NCBI GenBank assembly: GCA_963666515.2
Contig: OY762897.2
Coordinates: 3,200,001-3,264,000, forward strand
Source of the DNA: Candidatus Binatia bacterium
GTDB taxonomy: Bacteria > Desulfobacterota > Binatia > UBA9968 > JAJDTQ01
Length of the DNA: 64,000 nucleotides
Direction: 5' to 3'
Positions 3,951 through 52,861 of this stretch are shown here, one piece after another (the stretch's first letter is position 1; each line of letters starts with the position of its first letter). A program made the position numbers and the translations under genes. Under the pieces are notes generated by a model that made no database searches, was not told where the DNA came from, and saw only the letters and a list, made by a program, of their open reading frames with translations.

Positions 3951-4570
3951 GGCGCCTTGGCCGCGGCGATGAAGTCCTTCATGCGCTGGTGGTCCTTGCG
4001 GCCCGGCACGGCCTCGACGCCGGAGCACACATCCACGCCGAAGGGTTTCACCACGCGCACCGCCTCGCCGACGTTGTCGACGTCGAGACCGCCGGCCAGG
4101 ACCACGGGACGCGCCATCGGCTCCCGCAGCCACGTCCAGGTGAAGGCCGACCCCGAGCCGCCGAACCCCGGGCTCCAGGAGTCCAGGAGATAGTAGTCCG
4201 CGGGGTACTCCCCGATTCCCTGGAGGGTCTCCTCGTCCCGGACGCGGAACGCCTTGATCACCTTGAGCGGCCAGCGGGCGCAATAGTCCGGCTCCTCGTC
4301 GCCGTGGAACTGCACCGCGGTGAGCCCGGAGCCTCCCTGCGACCGGCACGCCCGGAGCACGGAGTTCACGTGGCGCCGCGACTCGTTGACGAACAGGCCG
4401 GCGGCGCAGACCCCGGCGGGCAACTCGCGCAGGATGCTGGCCGCCTCTTCGGGCGGGATGTACCTCGGGCTCGGCGGATAGAAGTTGAACCCCAGCGCGT
4501 CGGCGCCGTACTCCACCGCCCTGAACGCGTCGCCGGCGTTGGTGACGCCGCAGATCTTAACCTTGACCAT
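3947..4570 (-). CDS. trpF: Phosphoribosylanthranilate isomerase
   Basis: MVKVKICGVT, SPRY, VQFHGDE, LAGGL, GVDVCSGVE. Confidence 0.95.
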   Translation of the reverse strand: MVKVKICGVTNAGDAFRAVEYGADALGFNFYPPSPRYIPPEEAASILRELPAGVCAAGLFVNESRRHVNSVLRACRSQGGSGLTAVQFHGDEEPDYCARWPLKVIKAFRVRDEETLQGIGEYPADYYLLDSWSPGFGGSGSAFTWTWLREPMARPVVLAGGLDVDNVGEAVRVVKPFGVDVCSGVEAVPGRKDHQRMKDFIAAAKAP

Positions 4571-5393
4571 TGCGTTCGGCCGCGGCGTCCGCCCCCAGCA
4601 ACTCGGCAAGTCTGGCGCCGGGGTCTCCGGCGCGCATCAGCGCCTCGCCCACCAGAAAGACCCGTCCGCCCGAGGCCTCGAGCCGCTCGACGTGCTCCAC
4701 CTCCTTGATGCCGCTCTCGCACACGGCCAGCACGTGGGCGGGGATCCGCGGCAGCAGGGCTTCGGCCACTCCCAGGTCCACCTCGAAGGTGTGCAGGTTC
4801 CGGTTGTTGATGCCGATCATGGACGCGCCGATGTCCAGGGCCGTCTCCAGCTCGCCTTCCGAGTGCACCTCCACCAGCACGTCCAGGGAGAGGGACCGGG
4901 CCTCGGCGTGGAGCGACTCCAGGTCGGCCTCGTCCAGGATCGCGGCGATCAGGAGCACGGCGTCGGCGCCGAAACTGCGCGCCTCCACCAGGTGATAGGG
5001 GTCCAGCACGAAGTCCTTTCGGAGCAGCGGCAGCGACACCGTCGCGGCGATGTCGGAGAGATAGCGGAGGGAACCGTTGAAGAAGCGCTCCTCGGTGACC
5101 ACCGAAAGGGCGGCGGCGCCGTTGGCCTGATAACGCGACGCGATGGCGACGGGGTCGAAGTCCTGACGGATCACGCCCTGGGAGGGCGACGCGCGTTTCA
5201 CCTCGGCGATGACGCGGCGTCCGGGCCGCGACAGCGACCGCGCGAACCCCCGGCGCTGGCGATGATAGAGCGGGCGGTCCTTCAGCGACTCCGCCGGGCG
5301 CCCCTTCCGGCGGGAATCGGTGTGGGCGCGCACGTGCGCCACGATCCGTTCCAGGAAGTCGTTCCCTGCCGGCCGTGTGCCTTCACGTCCCAT
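4557..5393 (-). CDS. trpC: Indole-3-glycerol phosphate synthase
   Basis: IAEVKRASPSQG, LLRKDF, GADAVLLI, GINNRNL, ESGI. Confidence 0.95.
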   Translation of the reverse strand: MGREGTRPAGNDFLERIVAHVRAHTDSRRKGRPAESLKDRPLYHRQRRGFARSLSRPGRRVIAEVKRASPSQGVIRQDFDPVAIASRYQANGAAALSVVTEERFFNGSLRYLSDIAATVSLPLLRKDFVLDPYHLVEARSFGADAVLLIAAILDEADLESLHAEARSLSLDVLVEVHSEGELETALDIGASMIGINNRNLHTFEVDLGVAEALLPRIPAHVLAVCESGIKEVEHVERLEASGGRVFLVGEALMRAGDPGARLAELLGADAAAERNGQG

Positions 5394-41800: not shown

Positions 41801-44263
<2,463 letters not shown>

Positions 44264-44272
44264 GGCTCCCCC

Positions 44273-45526
<1,254 letters not shown>

Positions 45527-45538
45527 TGAAACTCCCCT

Positions 45539-46141
45539 TCACCCCTTTGCGGCTACGTCAGCGCGGCTGGTGATCACTTCATCCACCAATCCATATTCCA
45601 AAGCCTGCCGGCCCGTCATGAACAGGTCCCTGTCCGTATCCCGCTCGATTCTCTTGAGCGACTGACCCGTGTGCTTCACGAGGATCGCGCCGAGTTCCTC
45701 CCGCATCCTCAGAATCTCCCTGGCCTGGATGTCCACGTCGGCCGCGGTGCCCTGAAAGCCGCCGAGGGGCTGGTGGATCATGATGCGCGAGTGCGGCAGG
45801 GCGTAGCGCTTGCCCTTCTCGCCGGCGGCGAGCAGGACGGCGCCCATGCTGGCGGCCTGACCGAGGCATACGGTGGAGACCTGCGGGCGGATGTACTGGA
45901 TGGTGTCGTAGATGGCGAGGCCGGCGGTCACCGAGCCGCCCGGGGAGTTGATGTAGAAGTAGATGTCGCGTTCCGGATCCTCGGATTCCAGGAACAGCAA
46001 CTGCGCGGTGATCAGATTCGCCACCTCGTCTACGACCGGGCTCCCCAGAAAAACGATCCGGTCCTTCAGCAGGCGGGAATAAATGTCGTAGGCGCGCTCC
46101 CCGCGACCGGTCTGCTCTACGACGAAAGGAATGAAGTTCAT
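45539..46141 (-). CDS. clpP: Clp protease proteolytic subunit
   Basis: [27 protein letters not shown]. Confidence 0.98.
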
Positions 46142-46197
46142 GTTGCCTCAACCCGGGTGGCGACGCCACCAGAAAAGTCTAACCTCTTTTGTATCCG

Positions 46198-47496
46198 TCA
46201 GCAAGCGCTTTCCGGCGGGTCCACCACCGTAACGTCGGCCTGATCCAGCAGGAAATCCAGCGTCTTTTCGGACACGAGCTGGGAGCGCATGGTCTCTCGC
46301 GCCCAGTCCTGTCGGTAGTGCTCGCGCACCGCGGCCGCCTGACTGCCGCCGGCCCGGGCCACGGCGTCGATCCGGCCGTCCACCTCTTCGTCGGAAGCCG
46401 TGATCCCCTCGGCCGCGGCGATCTTCTCCAGCAGCAACGTCGCCCGGACCCGGCGTTCCGCCTGCGGCGTCAGCTCTTCCCGTACCTCCTCCGTGGTGGG
46501 TTCCGTAGCGTCCGCCCCCGGCCGTTCCCGCCGGCTCCCGGCCCGGCGCACGAGGTACGACAGTTCCCGGTCCACCATGGACGGAGCGACCTCGAAGTCG
46601 TGCTGGTCGATGAGATGCTCCATGATCCGGTCCTTCAACCCACCGTCCTGAAGCGTCTCGATCTCGCCCTGCAACCGGGAGCGCACCTTCTCGCGCAGTT
46701 CGTCCAGCGAATCGCACTCGCCGTAGTCGCGCGCGAACTCGTCATCGAGGGGAGGCAGAATCTTGCGCCGGATGTCCCGGACCGTCACCTCGAAGTCGGC
46801 CGTCTTCCCGGCCACGCGCTCATCGTTGGCATCCGCGGGGAAGCTCACCGCGATGTTGCCGGGCTCCCCCCGTTTCATGCCCACGAGGCCCCGTTCGAAC
46901 TCCGGTAACGCCTGGCCGGCGCCGATATCCACCCCGTAGCCCTCGGCCGCGCTTCCCGGAAACGGCTCACCGTCCACCGAGCCCGAGAAGTCGATCAGCA
47001 CGTAGTCTCCCTCTTCCACTTCGTCGCGCCCCTCCACCGGCTCCAGTTGCGCGTTGCGGTCCTGAAGCGACGTCAGGGCGCGGTCCACGTCGTCGTCCTT
47101 CACGTCGGCGCGCAAGCGCTCCACCGGCACCCCGCGATAGTCCTTCAGCTCGATGTCCGGCTTCACCTCGATCACCGCGCTGAACGCGAACGCCTGCGCC
47201 TCGTTCAGATCGCCGGTCTCCAGCCGCGGTTCGGACACCGGCTCCAGCCCCTGGTCCTTCACCGCGCCGGCGAGCGACTCCTCCACCAGCTCGGACAACG
47301 CCCGCGCCTGGATCTCCGTGCCGTAGAGGCCGCGCAGCACGTTCTGCGGAATCTTGCCGGCGCGAAAACCGCGCACCTTGGCCTGGCGCCCGAACTGCCG
47401 GTAGATGCGCGCGAAGGCCTTGTCCACCCGCTCCGCGGGGATCTCCACCCGCAGCCTTCGCTGGGTAGGCGTCAATACGTCGACTTCACACTTCAT
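46198..47496 (-). CDS. tig: Trigger factor
   Basis: GFRAGKIP ribosome-binding motif, FKBP domain, LDDEFA; upstream of clpP. Confidence 0.96.
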   Translation of the reverse strand: MKCEVDVLTPTQRRLRVEIPAERVDKAFARIYRQFGRQAKVRGFRAGKIPQNVLRGLYGTEIQARALSELVEESLAGAVKDQGLEPVSEPRLETGDLNEAQAFAFSAVIEVKPDIELKDYRGVPVERLRADVKDDDVDRALTSLQDRNAQLEPVEGRDEVEEGDYVLIDFSGSVDGEPFPGSAAEGYGVDIGAGQALPEFERGLVGMKRGEPGNIAVSFPADANDERVAGKTADFEVTVRDIRRKILPPLDDEFARDYGECDSLDELREKVRSRLQGEIETLQDGGLKDRIMEHLIDQHDFEVAPSMVDRELSYLVRRAGSRRERPGADATEPTTEEVREELTPQAERRVRATLLLEKIAAAEGITASDEEVDGRIDAVARAGGSQAAAVREHYRQDWARETMRSQLVSEKTLDFLLDQADVTVVDPPESAC

Positions 47497-47528: not shown

Positions 47529-47611
47529 TGGTGCGAGAGGGGGGACTCGAACCCCCACGGTTGCCCGCTAGATCCTAAGTCTAGTGCGTCTACCAGTTCC
47601 GCCACTCTCGC
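47529..47611 (-). tRNA. tRNA-Leu (TAG)
   Basis: GCGAGAG...CTAGA-CTTAGGA-TCTAG, variable arm, CCA end. Confidence 0.95.
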
Positions 47612-47749
47612 ACGCCGTTGACACGCACACCCGCGTGTCCCTGCTTTTGCTGTAGCAACCGCGCAAACCGCAAGTCAAGGTAGCTTCCGTCCGGGATCGG
47701 CCTGATCGAGGGCTGGATGGCCGGTGAGCCTTTGAGAGAGGGGGGGGAG

Positions 47750-47823
47750 TGGGCCGCCAGGGATTCGAACCCCGGACCTACTGATTAAGAGTCAGCTGCT
47801 CTACCAGGCTGAGCTAGCGGCCC
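47750..47823 (-). tRNA. tRNA-Lys (CTT), CCA not encoded
   Basis: GGGCCGC...GCTGA-CTCTTAA-TCAGT...GCGGCCC-A. Confidence 0.95.
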
Positions 47824-47840
47824 GCACGACCTGTTTTGAT

Positions 47841-47918
47841 TGGGGTGAGTGAAGGGACTTGAACCCTCAACCCCTGGAGCCACAGTCCAGTGCTCTAACC
47901 AATTGAGCTACACTCACC
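47841..47918 (-). tRNA. tRNA-His (GTG), with encoded G-1
   Basis: G-GTGAGTG...CTGGA-CTGTGGC-TCCAG...CACTCAC-C-CCA. Confidence 0.95.
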
Positions 47919-47940
47919 AGAAACACCAACTTCCGACATG

Positions 47941-48017
<77 letters not shown>

Positions 48018-48075
48018 GTCGAACCGTTCCTTCAAAGCCCGTTCGCGGCAGGTCGGCCGAGCCGCCCCGCCGGCG

Positions 48076-48152
48076 TGGTCGGGGCGAGCCGATTTGAACG
48101 GCCGACCCCCTGCTCCCAAGGCAGGTGCGCTACCTGGCTGCGCTACGCCCCG
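48076..48152 (-). tRNA. tRNA-Pro (TGG)
   Basis: CGGGGCG...CCTGC-CTTGGGA-GCAGG...CGCCCCG-A-CCA. Confidence 0.95.
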
Positions 48153-48239: not shown

Positions 48240-48264
48240 GGGAGCGTCCGGCCGGTCGCCCTAC
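48240..48264 (-). repeat. Degenerate GTAG REP-like element overlapping the rph stop
   Basis: Minus strand GTAGGGCGACCGGCCGGACGCTCCC. Confidence 0.5.
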
Positions 48265-48986
48265 GAGCGCCAGTCCCGAAGCGCCCGTTGCTGCACGTCC
48301 AGGATCCGCTGGATGCCCGTCTGCGCCAGGAGGATCAACCGGTTGAGGGTCGCCGGGCTGAAGGGCCGCTTCTCGGCTGTGCCCTGGACCTCCACGAACT
48401 CCCCCGACCCGGTCATCACGAAGTTCATGTCCACCTCGGCGTTGTTGTCCTCGCCGGCGTCCAGATCCAGCAAGGTCTTTCCCTCCACCACGCCCACGCT
48501 GACCGCGGCGACGCTGTCCTTGAGCAGGCCCTCCGGCACGGTCTTGTCGGCGACCCACTTCGTCAACGCGCAGGCCAGCGCCACGTAGGCGCCGGTGATG
48601 GAGGCGGTGCGGGTGCCGCCGTCCGCCTGGATCACGTCGCAGTCCAGCCACACCGTCCGTTCGCCCAGACGGTCCATGTTTGCCACGGAGCGGAGGCTGC
48701 GTCCGATGAGCCGCTGGATCTCGTGGGTGCGGCCGCCCACCTTGCCGCGGGCCGCCTCCCTGGGGATGCGCACCGGCGACGACGACGGCAGCATGCCGTA
48801 CTCCGCGGTGATCCAGCCCCTGCCGGACTTGCGCAGGAACGGCGGCACCCGGTCTTCGATGTTGGCGGTGCAGATGACCCGCGTCCCGCCCATCTCCACC
48901 AGCACCGAGCCGGCGGCGTGCTCGATGAACCCGGGCGTGATGTGGACCGGCCGCAACTCCTCGTCCCCACGTCCGTCGGCTCGCAT
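48261..48986 (-). CDS. rph: Ribonuclease PH
   Basis: MRADGR, GWITAEYGMLP, GRTHEIQRLIGRSLR, ADGGTRTASITG, EVQGTAE. Confidence 0.97.
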   Translation of the reverse strand: MRADGRGDEELRPVHITPGFIEHAAGSVLVEMGGTRVICTANIEDRVPPFLRKSGRGWITAEYGMLPSSSPVRIPREAARGKVGGRTHEIQRLIGRSLRSVANMDRLGERTVWLDCDVIQADGGTRTASITGAYVALACALTKWVADKTVPEGLLKDSVAAVSVGVVEGKTLLDLDAGEDNNAEVDMNFVMTGSGEFVEVQGTAEKRPFSPATLNRLILLAQTGIQRILDVQQRALRDWRS

Positions 48987-49139
48987 GTGCATGTTTACCT
49001 GCACTCCGACGCACACCGTAGACGCTCTCAAGGCCGAAGACAAGCCCGACGCTACGCCGCTCTCGGGGTCCCTTCGTGGGAGGTCTCGGCAGCGCAAGGC
49101 GAGGTTCCGCTAAAGTTCCTCCGGGCGGCGTTGAGCCAC

Positions 49140-49167
49140 TTGACGCGGCTGGACGCCCCTGTAGAAT
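49140..49167 (+). promoter_or_regulatory. Sigma70-type promoter of the accessory island
   Basis: TTGACG-N16-TAGAAT, followed by a GGGAGA Shine-Dalgarno before ATG 49202. Confidence 0.65.
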
Positions 49168-49201
49168 ATCCATGGTCGACCAAAACTGACGGGAGAAGAC
49201 C

Positions 49202-49708
49202 ATGGTTTCCGATCAAACGAGAAACGCCGTCTGGCAGGACATCCTGGACGCAGCAAGACTCGTCCGGTACTACGAGACACTGGCCGACCGGCATCGGTTC
49301 AAGCACTGGCTGATTCGGTTCCTGATGTTGGCGGCGGCGGCCGGGGGAGTCGCGGCGCTGCTGGAATTGCTTCCATCCATTGCTCAGTTGGTGGCCGGCG
49401 GGCTGATCGCCTTGCTTGTTGTGTGGGACTCCATTTCCGACTACGCAAAGAAGGCTGCCGTGCTACACGCGATCAGCCTTGAATGCAGCTCCTTGGAAAA
49501 CGAATGGCGCGAGCTATGGCTGGACATCGAGAATGAGGCGACCGATGAGGCCGACGCTCGAGCCAGGAACAACCGGCTCGCACGCAGAATGGATGACGTA
49601 ACCGCATGGGCGGGGCACGCGGACATCCGAGAGAATACCAGGCTCAACGAGGAATGCGAGGCAGCGGCGTACCGCGTGGTGGTTGACCGATATGCAGCCG
49701 AGAACTAA
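49202..49708 (+). CDS. Two-TM membrane protein, SLATT-like effector
   Basis: 168 aa: N-terminal helix (RYYETLADRH), two adjacent hydrophobic segments (WLIRFLMLAAAAGGVAALL, IAQLVAGGLIALLVVW), helical C-terminus; promoter and RBS present. Family assigned by architecture only. Confidence 0.6.
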   Translation: MVSDQTRNAVWQDILDAARLVRYYETLADRHRFKHWLIRFLMLAAAAGGVAALLELLPSIAQLVAGGLIALLVVWDSISDYAKKAAVLHAISLECSSLENEWRELWLDIENEATDEADARARNNRLARRMDDVTAWAGHADIRENTRLNEECEAAAYRVVVDRYAAEN

Positions 49709-49814
49709 GAGAGCCAGCGGCAAGCCTGCGAGGCCGGGCAAGACTCCGCCGCCTTCCCCGCCTCCAAAACCTCCGTCCAAAAAACCTGCTCCGCCACGCC
49801 AGGACAAAGCATAG
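49692..49814 (+). CDS. Small Pro/Lys-rich peptide (40 aa), hypothetical
   Basis: Manual translation MQPRTKRASGKPARPGKTPPPSPPPKPPSKKPAPPRQDKA*; start overlaps the upstream gene by 17 nt, GGTGG upstream. Confidence 0.5.
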   Translation: MQPRTKRASGKPARPGKTPPPSPPPKPPSKKPAPPRQDKA

Positions 49815-49877
49815 CGCGCCGGCGACGGTTACTTCATGACGGGCCGTTGGGAGTGCGCTGAAACGTACGGAACCGAA

Positions 49878-51367
49878 ATGCTCGAACGCCTGGAGTTGGA
49901 AAACGTCGGCCCGGCGCCGGAAATGCTGCTGGATCTGCAACCCCGGTTGAATCTCATCACCGGCGACAACGGGCTCGGCAAGAGCTTCCTGCTTGATGCC
50001 GCCTGGTGGGCGCTGACGCGGAGGTGGCCTCGTGATCTGAATCACGCCTGACCTCCGGCTACGCGGCCCGTCCGTCGGATATTGCGAAACCGGCGAAGCT
50101 GCAATTCGCACTAACAACCACTGCCGGAAAGCGCGGGAGCTTCGAGAGCAGATACTCAGCCCAAGACGAGAGCTGGACCGGCCAACCTGGAAGACCGTGG
50201 AGCCCCGGACTGGTTATCCATGCACACGCCGACGGCGGCTTCTCGGTCTGGGATCCGGCCCGGAACTACTGGAAGAAAAAAGGGAATATCGACGTTCAGG
50301 ATCGGCTTCCGGGGTACGTTTTCTCACCGGAAGAGGTCTGGACCGGGCTGGTCGTCCCGATCCAGGGCAAAGCGACCAGGGTCTGCAAGGGACTCCTCGA
50401 CGATTGGTCGAGTTGGATACGGGAGAATGGGGAGAACGCACGCCGCATGGCCGAGGTCGTCAGTACACTGACGGTCGGAGACGAGCCTTGCCAAGTCGGT
50501 CCGATCCTGCGGCTTTCCGTTGATGACGCGCAGGACATCCCATCGATCAAGACCGAATATTCCGACGCCGTTCCGATCGTGCTCGCATCATCGGCGGTGC
50601 GCAGGATTACCGGCTTGGCCTATATGCTCGTGTGGGCCTGGAGCGAACACGTGCGTGCCGCAGCACAGCTCGGCTTAAAAGTCGCCGGGCAGGTAATTCT
50701 GCTGTTTGACGAAATAGACGCGCACCTTCATCCACGATGGCAGCGAGCCATCATACCCGCAATTCTCCGAGTAATGGACCATCTCACTGATCGCAACACG
50801 GGCGTACAGCTCATCGCGGCCACCCACTCGCCGCTCGTGCTCGCCTCGGTGGAGCCTCACTTCGATGAAGACCTCGACCGGCTATTCCACCTGGAGATAC
50901 GCAATGGTCGGGTGCACCTCGATGTCAAGCCGTGGGCGGCACAGGGCTTTCGGAATCTCTGCGCCTACTCTGCGATGTACGAACCGGTCGGGACTGTGGA
51001 TCACTTCGTAAGCTGCCATGAAGACCCGTCGAAGACATACGAGTGGGACAACTACCGCTACTGCGCAGCATGGATCAATTCAAGCAAGGGCAATGCGCCG
51101 GCAGGTGATCTGCTCGATCCGTTCGATATCGAGAACGGGTGGTTCGAGATCCATCTGCCGTCCTTGCAGTTGCGAGTTTCGGACACCATTCCCGACGAGT
51201 TCCGGGAACGCGCCGAGTACGTATTGAACAGGCTGCATCTGCGCGACGACGAGCGTGTCATACGTCAACGCAGCGAGTGGTACCGCATGTATCAATGCGG
51301 GGAGCTTTCCTTGGATGGACTCGACGGGAAAGCACCGCTGATAGCTGCAGCAATAGACAGGGCATGA
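49878..51367 (+). pseudogene. Frameshifted ABC/AAA-type ATPase fused in frame to an HNH nuclease domain (Septu/PtuAB-like)
   Basis: Walker A GDNGLGKS in 49878..50051; the frame switches within 50036-50048 and stays open into ORF 50447..51367, which has Walker B/D-loop LFDEIDAHLHPRWQ, H-loop ATHSP and then HNH motif LCAYS...DHF...YEWDNY..C...NSSK. Confidence 0.75.
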
Positions 51368-51422
51368 ACATGACGTTGACGTGGACGCGGGGAGGGGCGT
51401 GACCGGCGGCCCATCCACAATC

Positions 51423-51443
51423 GGGCTCGAATTCCGCCCCTAC
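51423..51443 (-). repeat. GTAG REP-like variant overlapping the aldehyde dehydrogenase stop
   Basis: Minus strand GTAGGGGCGGAATTCGAGCCC. Confidence 0.5.
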
Positions 51444-52861
51444 AGGTGGAAGACGACGGTCTTCAACTCGGTCATCTCCTCGACGGCGTACTTCGGGCCT
51501 TCCTTGCCGAAGCCCGACTCCTTGAGGCCGCCGTACGGCATCACGTCGGCGCGCCACTGCGGCCCCCAGTTCACGTGCAGGTTGCCGGACTCGACCTCGC
51601 GGGCGAAGCGCATGGCCCAGCCGACGTTCTCGGTGAAGATGCCCGCGGAAAGGCCGAACACCGTGTCGTTGGCCAGCGCGATGGCCTCGTCGATGGATTC
51701 GAACGGTGTGACCGCGACGGCCGGGCCGAACAGCTCGTCGCGCGAGATCCGCATGCCGCTGGAAACGTCGGCCACCACGGTGGGCGCGTAGACCGCACCG
51801 TTGCGGGAGCCTCCGGCCACCAGCCGGGCGCCTTCGCCGACGGCCTCGTTGACCCACTGCTCCACCCGGACGGCTTCGGCCTCCTTGATCATCGGCCCCA
51901 CCTGGGTCGCGGCATCGAGTTGGCTGCCGGTGGCCAGGGCCTCCACCCTGGGCGCCAGCGCGCCCAGGAAGTCCGCATACACCTTGCCGTCGGCCAGCAC
52001 GCGCTGGGTGGAGATGCAGACCTGCCCGGAATTGGCGTAGCCGGTGGCGGCCACGGCCGCGGCCACCTTGTCGAGGTCGGCGTCCGGCATGACGATCAAC
52101 GGGCAGTTGGAGCCCAGCTCCATGGTGACCTTCTTGATGCCCGCCACCCGGCAGATGTTCTCCCCCACCTCGCGGCTGCCGGTGAAGGTGATCTTGCGCA
52201 CCCGGGGGTCGGCCACCAGCGGATCGCCGATCTCGCCGCCCGAGCCGGTGAGGCACTGGACGCCCTCGGGCGGCACGCCGGCCTCCAGCAGGATCTCGGT
52301 GAGCTTGAGGCCCGACAGCGGCGTGTCGGAAGCCGGCTTGATGACCACCGAGTTGCCGCCGGCGATGGCCGGGCCCACCTTGTGGCACAGCAGGTTGAGC
52401 GGGAAGTTGAACGGGCCGATGGCCACCACCACGCCGCAGGGCACCCGGAGCGTGAAGGCCAACTTGCCCGCTCCCGCGGGGTCGGCGTCCAGCGGCACGG
52501 TCTCGCCGTGCACCCGCTTGGCCTCCTCGGCCGAGGCGGTCAGGGTCTCCACCGCCCGGCGCACCTCGCCCTTGCCCTCGGCCAGGACCTTGCCCTCCTC
52601 GCTGGAGATGAGCGTGCCCAACTCGTCCACCCGCTCGGCCATGAGCGCGGCCGCGCGGGTCAGCACGCGCCAGCGCTCGTGGGCGGTCATGCGCGCCATC
52701 ACCTTGGCGCCGCGCTCGGCGAACGCGAGCGCGCGATCCACGTCGGCGACGCCGGCCTTGGGCACGGCGTCGATGACGGAGCCGTCATACGGGTTGCCGA
52801 CATCCTGCATCCTGGGTCGGTCCACCCACTCGCCTGCAAGAAACATCTTCATGGCGATCAC
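51440..52861 (-). CDS. Aldehyde dehydrogenase family protein
   Basis: PFNFP, FTGS, MELGSN, GQVCIS (catalytic Cys), ELFGP, PYGGLKESG. Confidence 0.93.
   Translation of the reverse strand: MIAMKMFLAGEWVDRPRMQDVGNPYDGSVIDAVPKAGVADVDRALAFAERGAKVMARMTAHERWRVLTRAAALMAERVDELGTLISSEEGKVLAEGKGEVRRAVETLTASAEEAKRVHGETVPLDADPAGAGKLAFTLRVPCGVVVAIGPFNFPLNLLCHKVGPAIAGGNSVVIKPASDTPLSGLKLTEILLEAGVPPEGVQCLTGSGGEIGDPLVADPRVRKITFTGSREVGENICRVAGIKKVTMELGSNCPLIVMPDADLDKVAAAVAATGYANSGQVCISTQRVLADGKVYADFLGALAPRVEALATGSQLDAATQVGPMIKEAEAVRVEQWVNEAVGEGARLVAGGSRNGAVYAPTVVADVSSGMRISRDELFGPAVAVTPFESIDEAIALANDTVFGLSAGIFTENVGWAMRFAREVESGNLHVNWGPQWRADVMPYGGLKESGFGKEGPKYAVEEMTELKTVVFHL

Follow-up and report, generated by a model that had tools for sequence, protein, structure and literature searches.

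The group of SLATT proteins was reportedly defined by Burroughs et al. in 2015. As described in two reports, these proteins are mobile and are predicted to serve as pore-forming effectors or accessories of CBASS, DRT10 (UG17), DRT3, RADAR and AbiA-type systems, whereby the partners of the known SLATT proteins are enzymes which make a nucleotide or DNA signal (PMC9226505; 10.64898/2026.04.29.721553). In the second source, the triggering and silencing of SLATT proteins is stated to be an open question (10.64898/2026.04.29.721553). The locus described here resides in a stretch of 64,000 nt from a Candidatus Binatia bacterium (contig OY762897.2), which is referred to as the window and whose numbering is used throughout. 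It comprises a gene for a SLATT-like protein with two membrane helices (2TM gene), which is adjoined at its 3' end by a 40-codon open reading frame (ORF) for a proline-rich peptide, referred to as the micro-ORF (Table 1). Judged from the comparison of this sequence with related loci, the micro-ORF is very probably a genuine, conserved small gene, which is coupled to the 2TM gene and forms a two-gene module with it.

The micro-ORF starts with an ATG at 49692-49694 and ends with a TAG at 49812-49814, its product being MQPRTKRASGKPARPGKTPPPSPPPKPPSKKPAPPRQDKA; the 2TM gene terminates with a TAA at 49706-49708 and shares its last 17 nt with the micro-ORF. The sequence GGTGG (49678-49682) is found upstream of the ATG with a spacing of 9 nt, and a TTG at 49683 is given in the ORF listing as alternative start, yielding 43 amino acids (aa). 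Proline accounts for 14 of the 40 codons (35%), which are written as CCG (seven), CCT (five) and CCA (two), and the peptide possesses 11 lysine or arginine residues and one aspartate, its net charge being +10. Two side observations were made within the micro-ORF. A strain variant (49736 G>A) was found in contigs of the runs X1, X3 and X5, where it affects the third base of the Pro15 codon and is synonymous. On the minus strand, a terminator-like hairpin with a T-run is located at 49787-49811, the T-run being the complement of AAAAAA in the K30-K31 codons; this hairpin may mark the end of convergent transcription or have arisen by chance (four found versus 1.8 expected in the region).

The comparison included 55 loci, namely the window and 54 public loci from metagenome-assembled genomes (MAGs) which possess a relative of the 2TM protein (34-70% identity) and which, by their record titles, belong to Binatia, Acidobacteriota, Nitrospirota, Nitrospinota, Alpha- and Gammaproteobacteria, Latescibacterota and Entotheonella MAGs. 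A complete 2TM frame of at least 160 aa is present in 52 of the 55 loci; in L010, L036 and L050 it is broken. Directly downstream of the 2TM gene, the small ORF was sought in the +1 frame with the pattern [GSAY]-x-P-x-[RK]-P and a proline run after it, and an intact motif-bearing ORF was identified in 44 of the 55 loci, 41 by the pattern and three by eye; the classes of loci are given in Table 1. Among these 44, L037 is without an in-frame start codon and L011 has ATA in place of ATG. A more distant clade with 32-34% identity was found to follow the same layout, as an overlapping proline-rich +1 ORF starts from the same TATGC junction in all of its four loci, three of which share a P-P-R-P core. 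These four comprise a second SLATT-like gene of the window's own genome (G000:C1:1234550-1235044, minus strand, locus L056, 34% identity), which possesses its own overlapping +1 proline-rich ORF, and three loci from relatives (L057-L059), which are of the same distant SLATT-like type. The family of SLATT-like genes with a proline-rich ORF is thus wider than the 54 loci compared. In the 30 relatives examined, 18 of them from the same genus, a close copy of the module was found in none and the distant type in three. As a single control, L060 was inspected, a locus of the same phylum with a canonical SLATT_1 gene (only one of 201 genomes gave a match above the cut-off), and no proline-rich ORF was found downstream of this gene.

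The start codon provides the first line of evidence for a coding function, as the ATG of the micro-ORF is formed by the penultimate Tyr-Ala junction of the 2TM gene (TAT GCN). TAT serves as the terminal Tyr codon in 46 of 47 loci, as compared to 43 of 222 (19%) for the other Tyr codons of the same genes, a bias for which Fisher's test gives a p of about 1e-25, which is overstated because the loci are related; in five loci without a terminal Tyr, His (CAT-G) or Asp (GAT-G) still yields the ATG. The distance from the first base of the ATG to the last base of the 2TM stop amounts to 10 nt in 19 loci, 13 nt in 11, 7 nt in three and 16 nt in the window, and two further loci were scored with a second ATG just past the stop, though an ATG 10 nt before also opens the frame. 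In total, 39 loci have the start at or beside the stop codon, whereby the overlap measures 7-17 nt in 37 of them and the small ORF is in the +1 frame in all 39 (36 tallied by script and three variant loci read).

The second line of evidence comes from the codons themselves. The core residues Pro, Arg and Pro are each kept in 41 of 41 loci yet written with four, six and four codons, respectively, with the Arg alternating between AGR and CGN codons. Over ten core codons of these 41 loci, the ratio of nonsynonymous to synonymous changes (pN/pS) is 0.52 in the peptide frame as compared to 1.30 and 1.69 in the other two frames, the value of 0.52 being an upper bound because synonymous sites are saturated. 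For the last seven codons (consensus K-D-G-K-K), pN/pS is 0.37 in frame versus 1.25 and 1.25 in the other frames; this value derives from 13 loci which were chosen because their tails align, the tails being short or absent in some clades (L011, L051-L054). As most of the micro-ORF lies past the 2TM stop, its conservation is not a shadow of the 2TM gene. It was also considered that the micro-ORF might be a C-terminal extension of the 2TM protein, displaced by a frameshift or sequencing error. This was excluded, as the members of the 2TM family end where the window gene ends (...R-Y-A-(A/T) in an alignment of 24 sequences, the window protein being two residues longer), so that the proline-rich frame is not a displaced C-terminus, and as the conserved ATG speaks for separate initiation; a search for longer or fused 2TM forms found none among 5674 candidates, which is weak evidence. 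That the micro-ORF is no gene at all, i.e., a chance open frame or a conserved non-coding DNA or RNA element, would fit with its shortness and low complexity, with a G+C-rich DNA in which spurious ORFs abound, with the failure to find the peptide in protein catalogues and with the lack of contigs on the module in the RNA run compared. Against this, the phyla share frame, start codon and motif while third positions vary, only the peptide frame has a pN/pS below 1 and the TAT bias is pronounced, which renders this explanation extremely improbable.

The original prediction, which had been made from the DNA sequence alone, was found upon re-reading of the sequence to be right in every detail as to the coordinates of the ORF, the GGTGG, the 17-nt overlap and the mixed proline codons. 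Comparative evidence from frame, start, motif and pN/pS now supports its proposal that a cationic polyproline peptide is encoded here and translated by coupling to the 2TM gene. Of the checks it had named, translation of the DNA downstream of 2TM homologues revealed the overlapping proline-rich +1 ORF to be intact in the 44 loci mentioned, with remnants in six more, and the dN/dS check likewise came out in its favour, with a pN/pS below 1 in both core and tail of the peptide and in that frame only.

The protein encoded by the 2TM gene was assigned by profile comparison. In the window, it matches the NCBIfam families SLATT_4 (E 5.9e-5, 23 bits; curated cut-off 55) and SLATT_1 (E 1.6e-4, 21.6 bits; curated cut-off 41), while no match of the 168-aa protein was obtained in Pfam or PADLOC. 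Within the family, SLATT_1 is matched by 86 of 93 aligned members at E<=0.01 (best family E 1.5e-8), SLATT_4 by 37 of the 93 at the same threshold and the Pfam SLATT_1 family by nine of them. Because the scores of the window protein remain below the curated cut-offs while the family leans to SLATT, it is called SLATT-like and regarded as a putative distant SLATT relative rather than as a filed member. An AlphaFold2 (AF2) model built on the family alignment (pLDDT 89.9) is all-helical, with helices at residues 4-53, 59-79, 81-110, 116-139 and 146-167, and a helical hairpin at residues ~37-80 is hydrophobic, as read from the sequence. In this model, the protein would thus exhibit the SLATT trait of two adjacent membrane helices between N- and C-terminal helices. 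A Foldseek comparison of the model with the PDB gave nothing at E<=0.001, and in VIA-align wide the best match (Z 9.9) was to BAR-type long-helix bundles, which is under the level that is informative for helical bundles. The homologue search gave 125 sequences at E<=0.001, nearly all of the 120 listed measuring 164-170 aa, and the nearest Atlas clusters consist of unnamed hypothetical proteins. Among the aromatic residues of the 2TM protein, W11, Y23 and Y24 are invariant and W106 is nearly so.

The peptides of the family were compared in an alignment of 36 sequences, using the numbering of the window peptide. M1, P12, R14, P15 and P24 are common to all 36 and G10, P21, P23 and P25 are nearly always kept, resulting in the core G-x-P-x-R-P-x4-P-P-x-P-P-P, which is preceded by a linker of about 8-35 residues, often opening with M-P-P, and followed by a short tail rich in K, P, E and Q. 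The median peptide measures 43 aa with 35% Pro and a net charge of +7, the longest proline run per peptide has a median of 6.5 (range 3-16), and K and R account for 12% and 9% of all residues, respectively. None of the 36 peptides possesses a Cys, and the highest mean over nine residues on the Kyte-Doolittle scale is 0.42, i.e., no hydrophobic stretch was found; therefore signal peptide, lipobox and membrane segment are lacking.

In line with the original prediction, which had called the peptide unannotated, a collection of 5.8 billion proteins holds no protein of 22-70 aa that has three 5-residue words in common with it. A profile of the 36 peptides likewise gave no matches in 1.84 billion representatives, whereby this low-complexity profile of 42 positions has little power, and two chance-level matches only in the PDB (E 3.2 and 3.9). 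In the literature, no account of a proline-rich peptide gene beside a SLATT gene turned up in a check that did not extend to the SLATT-defining paper. The polyproline micropeptide is a so far uncatalogued, unprecedented partner for a SLATT-type module, and shortness, overlap and low complexity explain why its gene is missing from the huge protein catalogues; even conservation in at least six phylum-level groups does not prevent a gene from escaping catalogues of billions of predicted proteins.

The composition of the peptide also bears on an alternative according to which the peptide itself is the active agent, hitting ribosomes or membranes as a cationic proline-rich molecule, with the SLATT-like protein serving as conduit, release pore or immunity factor. 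This would agree with 35% Pro, 21% K+R, a median net charge of +7 and the lack of Cys and hydrophobic stretches, with the invariant P-x-R-P core and with purifying selection over the full length of the peptide including its C-terminal tail. Moreover, the peptide ORF is lost or broken in ten loci as compared to three for the SLATT-like gene, as expected if the peptide was costly. The alternative is nevertheless considered unlikely, given that neither a signal peptide or leader nor a dedicated exporter or conserved neighbour was seen (36 peptides, 55 loci), that the likeness to animal proline-rich antimicrobial peptides is one of composition, with no homology found in the catalogue profile or PDB searches, and that SLATT proteins are otherwise described as effectors and not as transporters (PMC9226505).

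Having established both partners, the question arises which further genes belong to the module. All-against-all clustering of the ORFs within 4 kb identified the SLATT-like gene as the only family common to all 55 loci, with the next clusters being either other-frame shadows of the 2TM gene or neighbours among close relatives in at most 12 loci. ORF clusters that run antisense to or out of frame with the 2TM gene (35 and 20 loci) were taken as shadows of the coding sequence and not as genes. No downstream gene is conserved across the 55 loci by this clustering, and Pfam scans of neighbours in 39 loci (greedy longest-ORF picks rather than gene calls; L028 and L041-L054 left out) revealed no recurrent partner, whereby taken together neither SMODS, SLOG, reverse transcriptase (RT) nor any other signal-producing partner was found to be conserved near the SLATT-like gene. 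The promoter-like site lies 35 nt upstream of the 2TM start (one found versus 0.6 expected in a consensus scan). It falls within 49128-49848, the stretch over which the window and a contig of run X5, which comes from another study and is labelled sponge metagenome, are ~94% alike, the two being unlike past both ends. For the other loci, nucleotide similarity to the window is restricted to 49192-49771. The 2TM gene and the micro-ORF, with their own promoter-like site, are a self-contained module of ~0.6-0.7 kb, which sits at unrelated genomic places and is common to several phyla at 45-70% protein identity; the picture is that of a small, horizontally moving cassette.

Within ~3.5 kb of the module, 17 of the 39 loci scanned possess genes for restriction-modification (R-M), MazF, RES, ApeA-HEPN, phage lysozyme or holin, or a transposase, the others being surrounded by metabolic or housekeeping genes. 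In a set of six related loci (L014, L017, L019, L023, L024 and L025), phage lysozyme and/or a holin of the gene transfer agent (GTA) type with three transmembrane helices is encoded on the opposite strand ~1.3-2.7 kb upstream of the module, and in four of the six DNA methylases follow downstream, a setting which suggests a prophage or GTA-like region. In L036, an insertion sequence (IS) with a DDE_Tnp_1 transposase (Pfam E 1.6e-21) resides at ~4390-5240 inside the SLATT-like gene, and the module resumes ~850 nt on.

According to a further alternative, the peptide would mimic eukaryotic proline-rich ligands (of SH3, WW, profilin or EVH1) for host interaction in animal-associated bacteria. Of the 15 runs with small shares of the stretch (X5, X6, X10, X12-X15 and X17 noted), nine are labelled sponge metagenome, among them X5 with its ~94%-alike module copy, and one is labelled coral reef metagenome. 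Patterns of the class I and II SH3 type (K-x-x-P-x-x-P, P-x-x-P-x-K) are readable by eye in the core, and the better of the two PDB profile matches, which is not significant, falls on the proline-rich segment by which the ubiquitin ligase Itch binds SH3 domains. An E of 3.2 is, however, chance level for a low-complexity profile, the peptides are without secretion signal, the membrane partner is of a defence type with R-M, toxin-antitoxin or prophage neighbours in the 17 of 39 loci, and the habitat bias may mirror which genomes the collections contain, so that host mimicry is regarded as very unlikely.

As to the function of the module, the explanation judged best starts from a micro-ORF that is very probably translated by coupling to the 2TM gene, its ATG being located 7-16 nt inside the end of the latter and always in the +1 frame. 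The SLATT-like protein would be a membrane-damaging effector, as predicted for the SLATT proteins of CBASS, DRT10 and related systems, and the cationic, disordered polyproline peptide would be its dedicated partner or regulator, an assignment of roles that was made because the peptide is the only partner here. Most likely, the peptide would bind to the mildly acidic cytoplasmic helices of the effector and keep it inactive; the charges of the two are complementary (median net +7 for the peptide, -3 for the C-terminal part of the SLATT-like protein), and a complex prediction of the 2TM protein and the peptide, each with its own alignment, gave ipSAE values of 0.14 and 0.14 (mark 0.32), which is uninformative either way. 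Elongation factor P (EF-P) is needed for the efficient translation of polyproline stretches. Because the peptide has an M-P-P start, found in many loci, and a PPxPPP tract extending to as many as 16 prolines, its supply would hinge to an unusual degree on EF-P and on elongation that proceeds undisturbed. A drop in translation capacity, e.g. upon phage takeover, would then result in a shortage of the peptide and release the effector, whereby the module would be toxin-antitoxin-like or abortive-infection-like. This explanation as a whole, combining a real coupled gene, the module and a peptide which acts as inhibitor and gauge of translation, is put forward with somewhat less than an even chance of being right, and the inhibitor and gauge mechanism taken by itself is tentative and may well prove wrong. 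More doubtful still is the specific form of a minimal "translation-health" immune switch, in which a SLATT-type pore is restrained by a micropeptide whose synthesis obliges the ribosome to traverse M-P-P and as many as 16 consecutive prolines. If true, such a switch would turn any insult to elongation or EF-P (e.g. phage takeover, translation inhibitors) directly into membrane permeabilisation without a dedicated sensor protein; abortive infection would thereby gain a sensor logic of a new class, and a SLATT effector its first partner of the polyproline micropeptide kind. Likewise, EF-P biology would be linked to cell-suicide immunity if the proline tract gauges translation capacity. SLATT proteins are recurrent yet mechanistically unexplained immune effectors, and a partner consisting of one peptide makes for a fully dissectable two-part system, in which the peptide is removable by a single silent change of the Tyr codon in the 2TM gene.

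Several observations weigh against this explanation. The SLATT-like frame is intact while the peptide ORF is missing in four loci (L022, L034, L044, L045) and broken or disconnected in L016, L017, L030, L032, L037 and L041, and the reverse decay, with a broken SLATT-like gene and an intact peptide, occurs in L050 alone, L036 being a possible second case whose peptide frame was left uninspected. This pattern speaks against a classical antitoxin, because an essential antitoxin predicts that the toxin decays first; the counts rest on MAG consensus sequences, and at least three of the breaks fall within the C-rich proline tract, a sequence prone to assembly errors. Furthermore, the order of effector first and small partner second is less common for type II toxin-antitoxin pairs, and a search of 2.9 million viral contigs turned up no relative, none of its 48 pattern matches being confirmed. 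The Shine-Dalgarno signal of the micro-ORF is modest (mean duplex energy -3.9 versus -3.0 kcal/mol at control positions), which fits reinitiation by a terminating ribosome. Finally, the only RNA run compared (X17) has contigs on the PtuA-like part downstream alone, which come from relatives, and none on the module, which is not evidence of silence.

The original prediction had also considered an EF-P-dependent stalling sensor which controls the ATPase-HNH gene downstream of the micro-ORF. This gene is a decayed Septu system (PtuA/PtuB), whose PtuA profile is split over two frames and runs straight into PtuB; a frameshift near 50044 and a gene-fusing deletion are therefore deduced, the parts missing being PtuA profile positions 347-424 and PtuB positions 1-47. 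Related contigs have one extra base behind 50044. Over 49964-50200, the window sequence is matched by contigs of two runs, whereby these two runs belong to one study which may include the source and are no independent support. In a tblastn search, PtuA/PtuB was found within 4 kb of the module in none of the 54 other loci. Since the ATPase-HNH is decayed here and missing beside the module elsewhere, and since no downstream gene is conserved at all, the idea of a sensor for this gene is not supported and a functional tie between the two was dropped.

An effect in cis could, by contrast, be exerted on the 2TM gene itself, whereby translation of the micro-ORF and not its product would count: polyproline pausing, or the masking of a C-rich Rho-loading site past the 2TM stop by translating ribosomes, would decide how stable the 2TM mRNA is or where its 3' end lies. 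A fixed distance between a short motif and a polyproline tract, combined with a variable N-terminus, is the layout typical of arrest peptides. In the micro-ORF, the polyproline tract follows the conserved upstream motif at a fixed distance while the N-terminal linker varies between ~8 and 35 residues, and a C-rich tract directly succeeds the 2TM gene. For B. subtilis Rae1, mRNA is reported to be cleaved upstream of ribosomes that stall at proline motifs without EF-P (PMC12407103). On the other hand, purifying selection acts on the residues encoded past the proline tract (pN/pS 0.37), G and R of the core have withstood synonymous and two-step changes of their codons, and arrest peptides normally precede the gene they regulate, while here no conserved gene follows; an action in cis is consequently thought decidedly unlikely.

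In the window, the region 49150-51400, which includes the module and the Septu remnant, has ~60% G+C as compared to ~70% on either side. The flanking minus-strand ORFs were recognised by eye and are presumably those of RNase PH (48261-49097) and an aldehyde dehydrogenase (51440-52861). About 1 kb before this low-G+C island, five clustered tRNA genes (Leu-tag, Lys-ctt, His-gtg, Arg-tct, Pro-tgg) are located on the minus strand at 47529-48152, which is a possible integration hot spot. Further away, on the minus strand at 41801-47496, there are consecutive genes which, by eye from their translations, we take to be those of Lon (820 aa), ClpX (417 aa), ClpP (200 aa) and trigger factor (432 aa).

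Table 1. Features of the module and its downstream neighbour in the window, and classes of the 55 loci compared
Feature or class	Positions in the window	Strand	Loci	Basis or remark
Promoter-like site TTGACG, 16 nt, TAGAAT	49140..49167	+		consensus scan, 10/12 matches
SLATT-like 2TM protein gene, 168 aa	49202..49708	+		sub-cut-off NCBIfam SLATT matches, AF2 model
Micro-ORF, 40 aa	49692..49814	+		+1 frame relative to 2TM gene, overlap 17 nt
Conserved core of the peptide, G10-P28, GKPARPGKTPPPSPPPKPP	49719..49775	+		alignment of 36 peptides
N-terminal PtuA fragment (Walker A region), ended by frameshift	49836..50051	+		PADLOC PDLC00307 positions 1-53, E 6.5e-26
Remainder of PtuA (profile positions 54-346 of 424), joined by a deletion to PtuB (profile positions 48-189 of 198)	50054..51367	+		PDLC00307 E 2.9e-103, PDLC00348 E 2.7e-52
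Intact small ORF with motif			41 loci	43 pattern matches, from which L010 (frameshifted after four prolines) and L017 (in-frame stop) were dropped
Variant cores, small ORF intact			L012, L025, L050 (3 loci)	found by eye
Recognisable remnants, frameshift or stop			L010, L016, L017, L030, L032, L041 (6 loci)	
IS-split 2TM gene			L036 (1 locus)	distal part aligns to window 49595-49795
No recognisable small ORF			L022, L034, L044, L045 (4 loci)	

Compared with known systems, the downstream neighbour differs from an intact Septu in that its PtuA is split over two frames at profile position 53/54 and the N-terminus of PtuB is missing. With arrest peptides such as SecM, the micro-ORF shares consecutive prolines past a conserved short motif, a fixed distance between the two and a variable N-terminal part; unlike SecM-type peptides, in which the sequence past the arrest point may vary freely, it follows its partner gene and precedes no conserved gene to regulate, and its C-terminal tail is under selection at the protein level (pN/pS 0.37 in the 13 chosen loci). 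The proline-rich antimicrobial peptides of insects and mammals are cationic, contain ~30-40% Pro and P-R-P-type motifs, and are extended and unstructured; they bind in the ribosomal exit tunnel or trap release factor, and they are secreted by their producer. The module peptide resembles them in its charge, its 35% Pro (such peptides having at least ~25%), the invariant P-x-R-P, a similar length and a predicted extended, unstructured shape, but it is made inside the bacterium without a leader, and no sequence homology was found in the profile searches. The nearest analogy in architecture is given by the phage spanins Rz/Rz1, where a small proline-rich gene lies in the +1 frame of a membrane-protein gene. 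As in these, a proline-rich small ORF in the +1 frame (39 of 39 loci) overlaps the 3' part of a membrane-protein gene, and phage lysozyme and/or holin genes are found within 2-3 kb in six loci; in contrast to them, lipobox, Cys and signal sequence are lacking in all 36 peptides, a cytoplasmic helix of 35 residues and then two membrane helices take the place of a single N-terminal anchor in the larger protein, and the lysis genes are on the other strand and missing from most module loci.

With type II toxin-antitoxin systems, in which a small, disordered and labile antitoxin binds and neutralises a toxin that arrests growth, the module has in common that two adjacent, overlapping genes form a mobile cassette with one promoter-like site upstream and encode one larger and one small, probably disordered product. 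It deviates from them in that the small gene comes second, its product is without a DNA-binding fold, the putative toxin is a membrane protein and the peptide is lost in ten loci while the 2TM gene is intact. The likeness to the SLATT effectors of CBASS, DRT10 (UG17), DRT3 and RADAR comprises the small size of the protein, a pair of adjacent membrane helices between cytoplasmic ones, low-scoring yet consistent matches to SLATT_1 and SLATT_4, mobility and defence-type neighbourhoods, with the difference that the window protein scores under the curated cut-offs of the filed families. Like in the SLATT-RT pairs described for DRT10 (10.64898/2026.04.29.721553), the partner gene overlaps the SLATT stop codon; what sets the module apart from the SLATT effector systems is the partner itself, which here is a polyproline peptide of 30-60 aa and not a SMODS, SLOG or RT enzyme.

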